Assembly: GCA_919901855.1 (NCBI GenBank)
Contig: CAKKQC010000008.1
Span: forward strand, 91,616 to 155,615
Reading direction: 5' to 3'
DNA: 64,000 nt
Source: a bacterium
Lineage (GTDB): Bacteria > Oederibacteriota > CAKKQC01
Within the stretch, counting starts at the first letter, position 1. Each line of letters begins with the position of its first letter. Below, piece after piece: positions 34,401 to 40,400 of the stretch. The position numbers were made by a program.

Positions 34401-37400
34401 ATGGCCGTCCCCTCCAGGTGCTCCTCGTTCTCCATGGACCAGACGATCACGCTCGGGTGGTTGCGGTCGCGGTAGAGCAGGGCGTCGAGGTCCGCCAGGC
34501 CCGTCTCCGAGCTCCGGAGCTTCCGGTTCTCGTCCATGACCATCATCCCCAGCCGGTCGCACGCCTCGAGCAGCTCCGGCGCCGGCGGGTGGTGCGCGCA
34601 CCGGTACGCGTTGGCGCCCATTCCCTTGAGGACCTTGATCTTGTACTCGTGCAGGCTGTCCGGCAGGGCCACCCCGACCCCGGCGAAGTCCTGGTGGTTG
34701 CACATGCCCTTGAGCGGCGTGAGTGACCCGTTCAGGAAGAATCCGTCCAGCGTCCACTTGATGGTCCGGATCCCGAACACGGTCTCGTACGTGTCGACGA
34801 CCTTGCCCCCGACCTTCACGGTCGTCCGCGCCTGGTACAGAACCGGGTTCTCCGGCGACCAGAGGCGGGGCTTCGCGACCGTCAGCGACTGGACCGTCAC
34901 GCCACGGCCGTCCGCGGCCAAAGCGACAGGCTTCCAGCCTGTCGCCACGCGCTTCCCCTGCGCGTCGACGATCACGGTCTCGACCACCGGCCGGACCGCC
35001 CCGGCGGTCTCGTTGACGACCGTCGTCTCGACGCGGACCGTCGCCCGGCCCGCCGTGACCACCGGCGTCGTGACGTATGTCCCCCAGTGCCCGACGTGGA
35101 CGCGGGACGTCTTCGTCAGCCAGACGTGCCGGTAGATGCCGCCGCCCTCGTACCACCAGCCCTCGGGCTCCGAGGCGTCCACGCGCACGAGGACGCAGGT
35201 CGGCCCCTCGTCCCCGAACCTGGCTACGTCCGTGATGTCCACGGTGAAGCTCGTGTACCCGGACGGGTGGTCGAGGAGGTGGTGGCCGTTCACCCAGATC
35301 CGGGCGTTCCGGAAGATGCCGTCGAACTCGAGCGTGATCTTGCGGTCGCGATCCTGCTCCGGCAGGACGAAGACCTTGCGGTAGAACCCGGTCCCGCGCG
35401 CGAGGAACCCCTGGTTGCGGTCGCCCTCGTTCCGCGCGATCTTCCCCTCGACGACGTAGTCGTGCGGGAGGGCGACGACGGGCCAGGTGTCCGGGTCGGT
35501 CTCCGCGCGCATCTCGCGGTCCATGAACGCGACCTTCGTGTGCTCGCCGCCGCCGCGCTTGACGACGTCCGCGAGCCCGCCGATCACGCCGGATTTCACG
35601 GCGTCGGGCACCCGGATGTCGCCCCGGTGGAACCGCCAGTCCGCGTCGAAACGTTCCCGCGTCCGCATGTCCCCCATGATAGCCGGAATATCCCCTGGGG
35701 GCTCAGACCGCCTCGACGGGTTCCTCCACGACCTCCCCGGCCGCGCCGACCCGGAAGCACCGGGTCTCGCGCGTCAGCAGGGATACGATGACGTACCGCG
35801 TGTCCGGGTCCAGGGCCAGCCGGAGGTCCTCGGCGGACATCCTGGCCGGGCTGGCCGGATGGCTGTGCCCCACCCCGGCGAGCGCGACCCCCGAGCCCCT
35901 AGCCTTCCGGACGACCGCGAACTGCTCCTCCGGCAGGAGCGAGAAGTGCTCCGGACTGCGGTCGGCGTTGGTCATGGGGTAGAGCTCGGTCACGACCCCG
36001 CCCCTTGCCCCCAGGTACCAGCAGGCCTCGAGCGGCGCCTCCTGCCGGCTGATCTCGACCATCCGGTCCAGGATCGCCGCGGCGATCCTCATCCGTTCGC
36101 GATCGTGACCCGGTGGATTCCCCCCCCGACCGGTTCCACAGAGAGGACGGTGAACCCCTGTTCCCGGGCCGACTTGGGGACGTTGTCCAGCGGCTCGCCC
36201 TCGGTCAGGAGGACCTCGAGCCGGTCCCCGGGCGCCAGCTTCTCCATCTCGAGCTTGGTCTTCACGAACGTCATCGGGCAGTGGTCCAGGGAGATGTCCA
36301 GCCGCCGGACGTTCATATGAACAGCACCTGGCCGCCGTCCGCGAGCTCGAGGAACTTGGCCACGCCGAGGATCTCCTGGACGTCCGGCACCAGGTCCGTG
36401 CGCGTGAGCCCCATGATCTGCATCGCCATCTCGCACGCGTAGAAGTTCACCTTGAGCGCCCGGGAGGCGTCGATGAGTTCGTCCAGCGTGGCGACGTTCC
36501 GCTTCCGCATCAGTCCGGTCAGCAGCCGGGGGCTCAGCCCCAGGAAGTTGAACCGGCTCAGGGGGAGGTTCAGCCGCCCCCCCATCAGGAACCCGAACGA
36601 GCGCGCGAGCAGGCCCCGGCCGGTGAACGAGCGCCCGGTCTTCGCCTTGACGATGTCGAGCCCCCAGAACGTGAAGAAGAGGTTCACCCGGTACCCGACA
36701 GCGGCCGCGCCGCTGGCCAGCGTAAACACCGCGATCGCGCGGTCGAAGTCCCCGCTGAAGCACACGATCGAGAGCTTCTTCCCTCCATCAGCCATGACGG
36801 CTCCCCTCCCGGCCGTGCGGCCGGTTCATGGCGCCCCCGCCAGCGCCTGGTTGAAATCCCCGATGAGGTCCGCGATCCCCTCGATCCCGACCGAGACCCG
36901 GACGAGATCCTCCGTGACCCCCGCGGCGGCCGTCTCCTCCGGAGAGCAATCGCGGAAGATCGTGGAGGCCGGATGGAGCACGAGCGTCTTGGCGTCGCCG
37001 AGGTTCGTCATGCACTTGGCCAGCTTCAGCCTGTCGATGAAGGCAAACGCGCGCTCCCGGCTCCCCAGCCGCAGCGTGAGCATGCCGCCGTACCGCCCCC
37101 CGAACTGCCGCTCCGCGATCGCCCGGAAGGGGTTGCCGTCCAGGCCCGGGTAGTTGACGGAGGCGACCCCGGGATGCCCCGCCAGGTGCCGGGCCAGCGC
37201 CAGGGCGTTCGCGCAGTGCCGGTCCATGCGCAATGCCAGCGTCTCGAGCCCGAGGTTGTGCAGGAAGGCGTTGAACGGCGAGAGGCACCCGCCCGCGTTC
37301 TGCACCAGCCGCTTGCGCGCCGAAACGAGGAAGGCGGCCGGGCCGGCCCGTAGGGCGGCCTCGGCCAGGAGCGTAAAGCGGCCCGCCGTCCAGTCGAAGC

Positions 37401-40400
37401 TCCCCAGGTCCACGAGGACGCCCCCGATCGCCGTCCCGTTGCCGGTGATGTACTTCGTCGCCGAGTGGACGACGACGCTGACCCCGTGGCTCTGCGCCCG
37501 GAAGAGCCACGGGGTCGTCAGGGTCCCGTCCACGACCAGGGGCACGCCGCGCGCGGCGGCCGCCTTCCCGATCGCGCCGATGTCCGGCACGTCGAGCCGC
37601 GGGTTGCCGATGGTCTCGACGAAAATCATGCGCGTCCGCTCGTCAAGGGCGGCGGCGACCGCAGCAGGGTCGGTCGCGTCCACGTAGTCCACGACGACGC
37701 CGCCGCGGCGCAGGTCGTTGAAGAGCAGGACCGTGCCGCCGAAGAGGCTGCGCGCCGCCAGGATCCGGTCGCCCGGCCCGGCAAGGCAGAGCGCCGCCGC
37801 CGCGATCGCGGCCATCCCCGACGCGGTCGCGACCGCGCCGGCGCCGCCCTCGAGGGCGTTCATCCGCAGCTCGAACGCTTCGACCGTCGGGTTCGAGATC
37901 CTCGAGTAGACGTGGCCGTATCGCCGGCCCGCGAAGACCTCCTCCATCGCGCCCGCCGAAGCCTGCGCGAACGCCGCCGACTCGTGGACGGGTAGCGAAG
38001 TGGCGCCGGTCTCGCGATCCTGGTCGAAGCCGGCGTGGACGGCCCGCGTCTCGAACGCCGGCTCCGCCCCTCCGCCCATGAAGTACAGGAACTCCACATG
38101 GTCGCCGTCCCGCACCTCCCTGGTCGCGTGCTCGGCGTGCTTCAGGATCGTGCCGTTCAACTCCACCGAGACCGCCTCTGGGCGCGGGACGCCCTTGAGC
38201 TTGAGGAGGGCGGCGACGGTCAGCGGCCCGCTTTCCACCGATTCCTCGCGGCCGTTCAACGTGATCTTCATGCCACCTCCCCCGCCGGAGCGGTCCGGCA
38301 GCGCAGTCCGCAGAACAACTCGTAATCGACGAGCCCGGTCACCGTCGGCGCGTCCCCGCAGACCGGGCAGTCCGGCGCGCGGGGCACGCGGACGGTTCGA
38401 AACCGCATCTCGAGCGCGTCGAAGACGAGCAGGGAGCCGGTCAGGGGCACCCCGATGCCGAGAATGAGCTTCAGGGCCTCGGTGGTCATGATCATGGAGA
38501 CGACTCCCGCGAGCGCGCCGAGGACGCCGGCCTGCGAGCAGGATGGGACGGATCCCGGCGGCGGCGGCTCGGGAAACAGGCAACGGAAGCAGGCCCCCTC
38601 CCGGGGGCGGATCACGAGCACCTGCCCGCCGAACCGGAGAAACGCGCCGTGCACGAGGGTCTTGCCCGCGAGCACGCAGGCATCGTTGATCAGGTACCGC
38701 GCGGGGAAGTTGTCGGTGCCGTCGAGGACGATGTCGTAGCCGGCGATGATCGCGGGCGCGTTCGCGGAGGTGAGGCGCGTCACGAGGGGCCGGACCTCGA
38801 CGTCCGGGTTCATCTCCCGGAGGCGCTCGGCGGCGACCACGGCCTTCTCCCGGCCGACATCCCGGGTCGTGTAGAGGATCTGGCGGTGGAGGTTGCTCGC
38901 CTCCACCCGGTCCGAGTCCACGATCCCGATGGTGCCCACTCCGGCCCCGGCCAGGTAGCCCGCGGCGGGCAGTCCGAGCCCGCCCGCGCCGACGACGAGG
39001 ACGCGGGCGCCCAGGAGCTTCTCCTGCCCCGCTCCGCCCACCTGCGGCAGCAGGATCTGGCGGCTGTACCGCACGATCTGGTCTTCGGTCAGTTCCATCC
39101 GGGTCCCTCCGGCGGCCTTGGATACCCCAGCGTTCCTATCGGGTCACTAGGATATCAAACGCCATGGCCGCCCGTCAAGTTCCCTGACCAGAATCAGCTC
39201 ACCCGCCTGGCTTTGCTGTCCGCGGCGGCCCTCCGCTACCGCCGCTTCGGCGGCAACGTCCGGCGCAGGCTAACCCGAGGCCGTTAGCCGGCCTTTCCCA
39301 CCAGTTCCTTCCAGCGGCGGACCATGTAGCAGTAGTTGTCCCAGGGCACATCCGGCGGCGTCACGTGGTCGAAGTACGGGAGGAACCGGCCCTGCGGCAG
39401 GAGGCCCCGGATTCGCTCGATCTCGGCGTCCATCGCGGCCTCATTTCGCGCCATCGCGCGTTTGTCGATGTGGCCGCCGAGCACGATGTCCGGGTAGAGC
39501 TTGAGCATCGTCGCGAGGTCGTTCCCCGCCTGGACCTCGTTGGGGTAGACCAGGTTGAACCCGCACTCGCGGAACAGGGGCGTCAACTGGTGCATGAGCC
39601 CGTCGCTGTCCATCGACGCGATCCGGACCCCCCGCCGCTTCGCCATCGTCAGGATCTTCGTGTACCTGGGAGTAATGAACCGCCGGAACATCGCGGGCGA
39701 GATCAGGGACCCGTTCTTCCCCGCCATGTCCTCCCAGCCCGCGATCATGTCGATCCGGGTCTCGTCCAGGATCCGGTCCAGGAGCGTGTACCAGAGGTGG
39801 CACATGGTGTCGTTGATGTCCTCGACGAGGACCGGGTCCTCGACCATCATCTCGAGGCACTGCTCCGCCCCCATCATCGTCCTGGGGCCCCCGAGGAACC
39901 CGTACGGGTAGAAACCGACGGCCACCACCTCGGGAGAGGCCTTGAGGGCTTTCGCCCGCGCCGGCCAGTCCGCGGGAAACCGCTCCGGCGAGGCGGGATT
40001 GAACCGCTCCTTGTGCGCGTCCCAGGTCTTCCGGTCCTTGACGGGATAGTCCAGGAACTCGTCCATGCTGGTCTCGGCCTTGTACCCGCGCCGGAGCACG
40101 CCCTGCTCGTCGCGGTAGACGCGCTTGTCCCCGAGGTCCTCGACGTCGGTGAACGGGAACGCGGGGCAGAGGACGAAGTTGACCCCCGCATCGATGTTGA
40201 ACGTGTCGAACCCGAAGAGGTCGTACCAGTCGCGGTCCCGCTTCATCCCCTGCCGCTTCCACAGGCGGGATGTCTCGGCCCACGGCCCCCACTGGATCAC
40301 GAACGGCACCCGGTCCACGGGTCTCCCCTCGACGTACGCAAACAGCCGCTCCCGCGAACTCATCGGCATGGCGTCAGACCCTCCCGAAGTCGTCCTGCGA

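Follow-up and report, generated by a model that had tools for sequence, protein, structure and literature searches.

C-terminal adenylation by an E1 enzyme is established chemistry for the ThiS, MoaD, and HcyS sulfur carriers, and JAMM proteases are known both to trim a carrier (QbsD) and to release an amino acid product (Mec+). HcyD is reported to trim the C-terminal alanine of HcyS in Wolinella succinogenes (Krishnamoorthy & Begley, JACS 2011). This HcyS/HcyF/MetY/HcyD pathway is the closest known system to the locus reported here. Iyer, Burroughs & Aravind (2006) described the gene neighborhood of type 4e and made the explicit prediction that fused ThiS/MoaD is liberated by JAB proteins (PMC1779556). 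For other fused carriers there are experimental data: MoaX of Mycobacterium tuberculosis needs cleavage after Gly82 for activity (PMC4326299), the Deinococcus radiodurans JAMM protein DR0402 cleaves the natural MoaD-MoaE fusion DR2607 (Yang 2018, as cited in PMC8832034), and HvJAMM1 cuts a linear SAMP1-MoaE fusion (PMC4443979).

The window, the whole 64-kb stretch of DNA that was analyzed, carries the known protein-thiocarboxylate homocysteine pathway (type 4e of Iyer et al. 2006), with the small sulfur carrier and the methionine-pathway enzyme served by that carrier in one reading frame. We consider it probable that these genes form a five-gene operon for thiocarboxylate-dependent homocysteine (methionine) synthesis, in which an HcyS-type carrier is fused to its client MetY and is cut after Gly68 by the JAMM protease of the operon. 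The locus resembles the Wolinella and type 4e systems in combining four families in one operon (a Gly-run ThiS-type carrier, a rhodanese-less E1, a pyridoxal phosphate (PLP)-dependent O-acetylhomoserine sulfhydrylase, and JAMM), in having a TusA/SirA protein in the neighborhood, and in making its carrier as a precursor, predicted to be trimmed by JAMM. The tail to be removed, however, comprises the 413 residues (linker plus MetY) C-terminal of G68, compared to one alanine in Wolinella; the gene order starts with E1, and a DsrE2-like gene is added. Unlike type 4e, the locus has no adjacent sulfite reductase or sulfate-activation genes within the 64-kb window. The ThiS-MetY layout is apparently rare and undescribed, and the pathway and the processing principle behind it are both already known. 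The preliminary description, which called the arrangement unusual, therefore overstated the point: carrier-client fusions cleaved after Gly-Gly are known experimentally for MoaD-MoaE (PMC4326299; at second hand in PMC8832034), and JAB release of fused ThiS/MoaD had been predicted (PMC1779556).

Table 1. Features of the putative homocysteine operon, in transcriptional order (positions in the window)
Feature	Position	Strand	Evidence or remark
Sigma-70-like promoter match, TTGACG-18-TATCCT	39149..39178	-	~50 nt upstream of E1 start
E1-like adenylyltransferase (ThiF/MoeB/HcyF type), 276 aa	38268..39098	-	Pfam ThiF aa 11-246, E 1.6e-85
ThiS/HcyS-type sulfur-carrier domain, aa 1-68, end ...EFLYFMGGG	38068..38271	-	Pfam ThiS aa 5-68, E 2.7e-10
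Junction: G66-G67-G68 (38076-38068), then linker A69-E70-P71-A72 (38067-38056)	38056..38076	-	Sequence
O-acetylhomoserine sulfhydrylase (MetY) domain, aa 73-481 plus stop codon	36826..38055	-	Pfam Cys_Met_Meta_PP aa 74-477, E 5e-111
DsrE2-like (DrsE_2) putative persulfide-carrier protein, 160 aa	36313..36795	-	Pfam PF13686, E 2.6e-38
TusA/SirA-like sulfurtransferase, 75 aa, Cys-Pro motif LDHCPMT	36089..36316	-	Pfam TusA, E 8.5e-19
JAMM/MPN+ metalloprotease (HcyD-like), 129 aa	35703..36092	-	Pfam Prok-JAB, E 3.6e-16

The fusion gene (38271..36826, minus strand) is a single uninterrupted 481-codon ORF in the translation of the window and encodes 481 aa: a ThiS-type β-grasp carrier, a 4-residue linker, and a complete MetY, with both Pfam matches on the same polypeptide. 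Across the junction the translation runs ...DGDHVEFLYFMGGG directly into AEPAFETRAVHAGFDQDRETGATSLPVHESAAF... without a stop, exactly as first reported. The start codon, ATG at 38271-38269, has GGAGG 4 nt upstream and shares bases with the TGA that ends the preceding E1 gene (ATGA), coupling the two genes translationally. A longer TTG-started ORF (38583) was rejected as the fusion gene; it overlaps the E1 gene and is supported by no homologue. The MetY domain scores 425.7 bits against the NCBIfam model TIGR01326 (OAH/OAS sulfhydrylase), below the curated cutoff of 495. Its best PDB matches are 7kb0 (E 3e-111) and 3ri6 (E 2e-103), and the PLP-binding lysine, K273 in the motif HSATKYITGNG, is invariant in 80 sequences.

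The operon reads E1 (ThiF), ThiS-MetY, DsrE2, TusA, JAMM. The E1 is named MoeB or SAMP-activating E1 by NCBIfam, and ThiF is the only domain in its 276 aa, with no rhodanese domain. The DsrE2-like protein, whose NCBIfam match is below cutoff, has counterparts that occupy the corresponding place in fusion loci L001, L002, L088, and L089, and the TusA gene shares an ATGA overlap with each of its two neighbors. The JAMM protein is desampylase-like by NCBIfam, and its motif (E22 ... H75-S-H77-x7-S85-x2-D88) is intact and is conserved when aligned with the JAB proteins from 14 related loci. The E1 gene is adjacent to the fusion, as originally proposed; JAMM belongs to the same operon but is not an immediate neighbor of the fusion, as the DsrE2 and TusA genes lie between them. 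The promoter match (one sigma-70-like site found, 0.2 expected) hints at the operon start. In the window, URO-D-like and GH2 genes flank the operon. Genes for sulfite reductase or sulfate assimilation (PAPS reductase, ATP sulfurylase/APS kinase) are absent from the window; they accompany fusion loci L001, L002, and L088 and are an accessory rather than a catalytic feature of the pathway. In L001, L002, and L004, PALP genes precede the fusion; the operon in the window has none.

A database search for ThiS-MetY fusions with JAB genes, which the preliminary description had envisaged, was productive. It returned 16 further protein clusters of ~480 aa (PF02597 plus PF01053) at 48 to 61% identity, and JAB is present in all five fusion loci with enough flanking sequence. 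Downstream of ThiS-MetY, fusion loci carry E1, in some cases DsrE2 and TusA, and JAB. Next to the most closely related unfused MetY proteins, the carrier has its own gene just upstream, followed by E1 and JAB genes, and the same carrier also occurs fused to E1 and to DsrE2. Free carriers of the family almost always have a tail: 129 of 133 carry 1 to 18 residues after GGG, and the first of these residues has 16 different identities. Since free carriers are tailed in this way and JAMM/JAB occurs in 85 of the 88 loci with at least 4 kb downstream, C-terminal processing is the norm for this carrier family, and the ThiS-MetY fusion is its extreme form. The co-occurrence of JAMM does not itself discriminate in favor of fusion cleavage, because JAMM is found in 97% of unfused loci and is needed for homocysteine release.

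In the pathway that we propose, the 481-aa polyprotein would be translated and the operon JAMM would hydrolyze the bond after Gly68, leaving the 68-aa carrier with its terminal glycine carboxylate exposed and giving MetY an N-terminus close to the native one. We infer this cleavage, with good support, from the behavior of the family and from experimental precedent. The predicted scissile bond joins G68 (38070-38068) and A69 (38067-38065), FMGGG/AEPA; the junction-spanning peptide would be DGDHVEFLYFMGGGAEPAFETR, and the neo-termini would be ...FLYFMGGG-COOH and H2N-AEPAFETR. Residues 65 to 68 have pLDDT values below 50 in the AF2 model, consistent with a flexible MGGG tail. The E1 would then adenylate the carrier C-terminus, and sulfur would be added to give the thiocarboxylate, possibly from sulfide or from persulfide via TusA and DsrE2, a relay proposed because the E1 has no rhodanese domain. 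A point against this reading is that no sulfite reductase or sulfate-assimilation genes, such as accompany the system in other fusion loci, occur in the window. MetY would condense the thiocarboxylate with O-acetylhomoserine to form carrier-homocysteine, whose amide the same JAMM would hydrolyze, releasing homocysteine and recycling the carrier; this last step is modeled on what is reported of HcyS and HcyD in Wolinella. HcyD reportedly removes one residue or one amino acid, and we assume, by analogy with DR0402 and HvJAMM1, that an HcyD-like JAMM could also cut off a folded 45-kDa domain on a 4-residue linker. The need for cleavage after GGG, with JAMM as the obvious enzyme, had been argued beforehand, and the evidence strengthens that argument: the carrier is genuine, the fusion is conserved, the operon has an intact JAMM, free-carrier relatives are tailed precursors, and unfused relatives keep a separate carrier upstream of metY. 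Being in one frame with MetY, the carrier almost certainly must be freed after Gly-Gly-Gly by the metalloprotease of the same operon.

It is unlikely that the carrier instead stays attached, with no thiocarboxylate role, as a cis docking or regulatory β-grasp module that recruits, for example, E1, TusA, or JAMM, while MetY draws directly on free sulfide or persulfide or uses a free carrier whose gene lies elsewhere in the genome. Direct use of sulfide is within the reach of MetY-family enzymes, the search for a free carrier covered 64 kb of the genome, and N-terminal Ub-like-ThiF fusions beside a separate ThiS probably have another role (Iyer 2006, PMC1779556). Yet the activation tail FLYFMGGG is invariant in 17 of 17 fusions, next to a variable linker of 2 to 8 aa, and is identical to the tail found in over 130 free carriers. 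Profile scores do not set the fused domains apart from free carriers: against an HMM built from free carriers only, the domain scores 93.5 bits, within the 80- to 112-bit range of the free carriers themselves, and the medians for fused and free domains are 107.6 and 104.8 bits. Furthermore, the 64-kb window contains no second carrier gene, no fusion locus surveyed contains an extra ThiS gene, and nothing else in the operon is an evident substrate for the E1.

We also think it improbable that another protease, or autoproteolysis, cuts after GGG while the operon JAMM only hydrolyzes carrier-homocysteine, even though product release would fully account for the presence of JAMM. The protease that acts on M. 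tuberculosis MoaX is unidentified, and Escherichia coli processes MoaX incorrectly (PMC4326299); on the other hand, DR0402 (as cited in PMC8832034) and HvJAMM1 cut linear MoaD- or SAMP1-MoaE fusions. Chemically, the scissile bond does not differ from the Gly-X amide of the product, which JAMM has to cut, and the variation in the residue after GGG suggests that just the carrier body and tail are recognized. The trimming of HcyS that is reported for HcyD likewise speaks for JAMM.

The fusion does not result from a lost stop codon. A sequencing or assembly error between two genes, or a chimeric contig, was a natural concern: genes of unfused relatives abut or overlap (as ATGA in L169; in L090 the carrier, ending GGGK, and MetY share a frame and are one stop codon apart), so that one base error could fake a fusion. 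An independent groundwater contig in ENA (L168, ERZ1292629), although covered only ~3×, is 99.87% identical over 2,269 bp, with 3 mismatches, all outside the junction, and 0 gaps, and has the same in-frame junction. The exact protein (NCBI MEK7474898.1, from a MAG of Candidatus Coatesbacteria) is carried by 4 contigs from NCBI, Logan, and ENA, the 16 further clusters share the architecture, one of them on 32 contigs, and the linker runs straight into the conserved beginning of MetY (F-x-T), without any remnant of a start context. The fusion is thus confirmed in an independent assembly, and the chance of an artifact is negligible. Because members of the carrier family nearly always come with a disposable tail that JAMM removes, stop-codon loss or a frame slip at the tight hcyS-metY junction is probably tolerated, and it has happened repeatedly.

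That residues 1 to 68 are a genuine ThiS-type carrier, as first proposed, is upheld by the Pfam match, by a family profile that matches the solved ThiS structures 2k5p/3cwi (E 1.8e-24), by the β-grasp secondary structure of the AF2 model (pLDDT 82 to 95), and by the free-carrier HMM score. The domain is 43 to 60% identical to hundreds of free 68- to 75-aa carriers, and its pN is 0.23 against a pS of 0.73 when two related fusions are compared. The alternative that MetY natively carries this region as an N-terminal extension, with no relation to ThiS, has position alone in its favor and is refuted by the Pfam, profile, AF2, and free-carrier identity results and by standalone MetY relatives without the region.

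Among more distant systems, eukaryotic polyubiquitin, Ub-RPS27A, and Ub-RPL40 likewise place a β-grasp protein with a C-terminal Gly-Gly in frame at the N-terminus of a fusion, and release by a peptidase exposes an activatable carboxylate, as predicted here. Their fused partner, however, is not a client of sulfur transfer, the peptidases are mostly papain-fold DUBs, and the released protein is a modifier rather than a sulfur carrier; the relation goes no further than analogy and distant homology. The CysO/CysM/Mec+/MoeZ system of M. tuberculosis and QbsE/QbsD of thioquinolobactin synthesis share with the locus a thiocarboxylate carrier and a JAMM protease, but their clients are PALP-fold CysM and siderophore enzymes. 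CysM is a PALP-fold O-phosphoserine sulfhydrylase encoded beside the carrier, without counterpart in the operon, and the E1 of the CysO system carries the rhodanese domain that is missing here. We know of no carrier-client fusion in the CysO or QbsE systems. MoaX and DR2607, like the ThiS-MetY fusion, have a Ubl sulfur carrier at the N-terminus in frame with its own client and a Gly-Gly at the junction. MoaD-MoaE fusions must be cleaved after GG to be active and are cut by a JAMM/MPN+ protease, as is predicted for the locus. The locus would work in the manner of these fusions but falls outside their family, since its domains are ThiS-type and Cys_Met_Meta_PP: the carrier is ThiS/HcyS rather than MoaD, the client is a PLP enzyme rather than MoaE, the product is homocysteine rather than molybdopterin, and the protease gene is in the same operon.

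The sulfur-carrier domain and the O-acetylhomoserine sulfhydrylase MetY are encoded as a single protein: minus-strand translation of window positions 38271..36826 gives 481 uninterrupted codons, and on this one polypeptide Pfam matches ThiS at aa 5 to 68 (E 2.7e-10) and the whole of a Cys/Met-metabolism PLP enzyme at aa 74 to 477 (E 5e-111), with the junction reading ...DGDHVEFLYFMGGG-AEPAFETRAVHAG... The carrier-family profile matches the solved ThiS structures 2k5p/3cwi (E 1.8e-24), the solved structures nearest to the MetY part are the O-acetylhomoserine sulfhydrylases 7kb0 and 3ri6, and the PLP lysine K273 (HSATKYITGNG) is invariant among the 80 relatives compared. 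An AlphaFold2 model of the whole protein (mean pLDDT, 92) has a β-grasp fold at aa 1 to 63 and a confidently folded MetY, and its low-confidence segment (pLDDT, <50) is exactly residues 65 to 68 (MGGG). The preliminary description of an in-frame ThiS-MetY fusion was therefore accurate.

The fusion starts at an ATG (38271-38269) with GGAGG ahead of it; this ATG shares bases with the stop codon of the upstream gene as ATGA, an overlap found at three of the four gene junctions of the operon. Two other starts were rejected. A 585-aa ORF beginning with TTG (38583) overlaps the E1 (ThiF/HcyF-type adenylyltransferase) gene and is without homologue support, all homologues beginning MK(I/L)xxNG; an internal start for a separate MetY at M65, the ATG before GGG, falls on a methionine conserved in free carriers within FLYFMGGG, has its nearest GGAG 12 nt off, and would still leave the carrier with no stop codon.

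The JAMM motif of the operon's Prok-JAB protein (E22; H75-S-H77-x7-S85-x2-D88) is intact, and the protein aligns over its full length with JAB proteins of related loci. Domain searches of the E1 protein found no rhodanese domain. Neither sulfite reductase nor sulfate-activation genes border the operon, which lacks nearby sulfate-assimilation genes, in contrast to all other loci examined. No Rfam family reached gathering score in window positions 1-64000, leaving no SAM or other riboswitch upstream of the operon, and no terminator-like site was found.

Genes of the fusion operon and its surroundings in the window
Feature	Coordinates	Strand	Remarks
MttB-family (trimethylamine methyltransferase-like) gene	29797-31482	+	
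Putative small antitoxin-like/toxin-like ORF pair	31530-32206	+	After the MttB gene; judged from translations alone
352-aa ORF	32236-33294	-	Codon usage gene-like; no Pfam match
GH2 glycosidase	33299-35677	-	25 nt downstream of JAB; unrelated to operon
Prok-JAB	36092-35703	-	JAMM motif intact
TusA	36316-36089	-	
DsrE2-like	36795-36313	-	Between fusion and TusA
ThiS-MetY	38271-36826	-	ThiS and PLP enzyme domains
E1/ThiF	39098-38268	-	ThiF domain only
URO-D-like protein	39284-40369	-	Upstream of operon; unrelated

In the activation of ThiS, MoaD, and HcyS, the E1 adenylates the free α-carboxylate of the terminal glycine; when that glycine is peptide bonded, neither adenylation nor thiocarboxylate formation is possible. 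Because E1 chemistry needs this free carboxylate, the polyprotein would have to be cut after G68. In Wolinella, an HcyD-type enzyme reportedly both removes the carrier tail and hydrolyses the carrier-homocysteine amide, acting on the same Gly-X bond. The Deinococcus JAMM protease DR0402 cleaves the natural MoaD-MoaE fusion DR2607, yielding a C-terminal glycine (PMC8832034), and the activity of Mycobacterium tuberculosis MoaX needs cleavage after Gly82, for which Gly81 is needed (PMC4326299). Given the Wolinella enzyme type and these two examples, the JAMM protease of the operon would be the obvious agent of the cut; that a different protease or autoproteolysis makes it seems to us unlikely. 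Once cut by the JAMM protease, the released carrier would be adenylated by the E1, as in Wolinella, and given sulfur, probably from TusA/DsrE2 persulfides or sulfide; MetY would condense the carrier thiocarboxylate with O-acetylhomoserine, and the JAMM protease would then release homocysteine. The tryptic peptide across the junction is DGDHVEFLYFMGGGAEPAFETR, and the semitryptic peptides on its carrier and MetY sides are DGDHVEFLYFMGGG and AEPAFETR; the fusion is a convenient natural substrate for assays of bacterial JAMM proteases.

It is improbable that the carrier domain instead stays attached in a noncarrier role: its activation tail does not vary, and no other carrier gene turned up in the sequence searched, both of which disfavour such a role. 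In an alignment of 17 fusions, EFLYFMGGG is invariant in all 17 and is followed by a variable linker of 2 to 8 residues and then directly by the conserved MetY N terminus, F-x-T. No second carrier gene was found in the 64-kb window or in the sequence flanking the fusions at other loci. A hidden Markov model trained on free carriers only scored fused domains at a median of 107.6 bits and held-out free carriers at 104.8 bits, and the window domain, at 93.5 bits, falls within the free range (80 to 112). Between the related fusions L001 and L089, whose carriers share the C terminus AVEFLYFMGGG, pN was 0.23 and pS 0.73 over the carrier domain (used in place of dN/dS because dS between fusions is saturated), which indicates purifying selection on that domain.

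Carrier polypeptides that run past their glycines are the rule in this family. Scanning recovered at least 573 carrier-type stretches from species-representative genomes and more from metagenomes, and tails and neighbours were counted in 143 loci. Only 4 of 133 free carriers have GGG as their C terminus; the other 129 continue for 1 to 18 residues (33 by one, 28 by two, 20 by three, 22 by four, and 26 by five or more). The glycine run is exactly three residues long in 131/138 distinct carriers, and the residue after it has 16 identities, most commonly S, A, R, or Q. Where at least 4 kb of downstream sequence was present (88 loci), JAB occurs in 85, E1 in 86, and MetY in 78. These tails, together with the JAB genes of 85/88 loci, argue that C-terminal trimming is the normal maturation step of the family, by a peptidase that is evidently indifferent to the residues following the glycines. 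One free carrier of Hydrogenispora ethanolica (L006:5758-5988) ends in GGG-AAAWECCQ, a tail of 8 residues in which two cysteines stand side by side.

MetY is one of three partners to which these carriers are fused in frame. In an uncultured bacterium from the GTDB genome scan (Loclat_bin-05825, L064:6842-8026), FLYFMGGG runs directly into an E1 (SMNLTESQIERY), making a carrier-activator polyprotein with MetY upstream and JAB downstream, and in two metagenome contigs (Ga0207836_1000835, L103; Ga0302323_100642394, L108) FLYFMGGG continues as QGE(R/K)KKLSIISF into a DsrE2-like protein. Intermediate states between separate genes and fusion also occur: at L090:152-1195, the carrier (FLYFMGGGK) and MetY (PMSGFTTRAIH) share one frame with a single stop codon between them, one substitution short of a fusion, and at L169 the two genes overlap as ATGA. 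In a neighbour-joining tree of the MetY domain, fusions occupy at least six positions, but the tree has short deep branches and no support values and is thus only a hint of at least six separate fusion or fission events. An independent origin of the window fusion fits its E1-first gene order, which differs from that of the other fusion loci (ThiS-MetY, E1, [DsrE2, TusA], JAB, sulfite reductase-TusA, PAPS reductase, and CysNC).

In those other loci, PALP genes and extra Cys_Met_Meta_PP genes often lie upstream of ThiS-MetY. One or two additional Cys_Met_Meta_PP paralogues lie just upstream of the fusion at L001:3761-7936, L002:4337-7984, and L089:2401-5910, the first two of these loci also having PALP (cysteine-synthase-like) genes and, farther upstream, an Rrf2-family regulator gene; these neighbours suggest that several sulfhydrylases may draw on a single released carrier. 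A DsrE2-like gene is present in the window and in 4/5 other distinct fusion loci (absent from L004/L005), versus 14/88 unfused carrier loci, and its product may contribute to a persulfide relay that takes the place of the absent rhodanese domain or sulfite reductase. Among unfused MetY proteins, the closest (P0016, P0017 [H. ethanolica], and P0022) each have a separate 69- to 76-aa ThiS gene directly upstream and E1, JAB, sulfite reductase, TusA, and sulfate-activation genes downstream, a neighbourhood that we take to be the HcyS/HcyF/MetY/HcyD cluster of Wolinella succinogenes characterised by Krishnamoorthy and Begley. It matches type 4e of Iyer, Burroughs and Aravind 2006 (PMC1779556). A further merger within the cluster is seen in a Campylobacterales MAG (L074), where the JAMM protease itself is fused to a sulfite reductase-TusA protein.

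The preliminary description had proposed looking for the fusion in independent assemblies and in databases, and both comparisons bear it out. An independently assembled groundwater contig (ENA ERZ1292629, L168) is 99.87% identical over 2269 bp, with three substitutions and no gap, and keeps the same in-frame junction; the identical protein (NCBI MEK7474898.1, from a Candidatus Coatesbacteria MAG) lies on four contigs across NCBI, Logan, and ENA. A further 16 clusters at 90% identity, some from Omnitrophota and unclassified bacteria, hold proteins of ~480 aa with both Pfam domains and 48 to 61% identity to the window protein, and one includes a protein found on 32 contigs. Against this evidence, there is next to no chance that the fusion is an assembly artefact. 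The idea that the 68-aa region natively extends MetY and has no relation to ThiS is refuted. A JAMM gene is present in 5/5 fusion loci versus 97% of unfused loci, a background that leaves this co-occurrence with no extra weight for cleavage. The architecture is rare: among carrier loci, it occurs in none of the best 80 from representative genomes and in 2 of the 80 from metagenomes. A word-indexed protein search with a 130-aa junction query returned 21 short matches, missed known fusions, and was unusable for counting them; when the first 120 aa were searched exhaustively against 50%-identity representatives, only free carriers and truncated fragments came back and no fusion count was obtained, full-length fusions apparently falling into clusters whose representative is an unfused MetY. 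Databases name each fusion for one domain only ("sulfur carrier protein ThiS" in some entries, "O-acetylhomoserine (thiol)-lyase" in others), and tools that reconstruct pathways will therefore overlook either carrier or enzyme.

The homocysteine thiocarboxylate pathway is already known, as is, experimentally for molybdopterin synthase, a carrier-client fusion opened by a JAMM protease after GG; the ThiS-MetY fusion is no surprise to a specialist. Our full-text literature searches found no description of it, and it is absent from the fusions listed by Iyer, Burroughs and Aravind 2006, namely, ThiS-ThiG, MoaD-MoaE, and sulfite-reductase-ThiS (PMC1779556). It extends carrier polyprotein precursors from molybdopterin synthase to amino-acid biosynthesis, and the counts show numerically that members of a very widespread carrier family are nearly always synthesised as precursors. 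Of greater interest is a by-product, the combination of near-universal disposable tails with fusion, time and again, to the gene that happens to follow: the variable tails and three fusion partners suggest that loss of a stop codon is harmless because a C-terminal peptidase is always present. A bolder and rather doubtful reading is that the fusion acts as a control point in the manner of a zymogen, with both carrier and MetY inert until the JAMM cut and homocysteine synthesis licensed posttranslationally, with the carrier gene "fusion-permissive" and obligatory JAMM processing leading to recurrent independent fusions to MetY, E1, and DsrE2. Such control would resemble that by HvJAMM1, where release of SAMP1 from MoaE turns on MPT synthase, and would, if true, be a prokaryotic counterpart of eukaryotes encoding ubiquitin only as fusion precursors. 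Harmless stop loss is the logic usually invoked for eukaryotic ubiquitin genes, whose encoding is paralleled by the disposable tails and repeated fusions of this carrier family.
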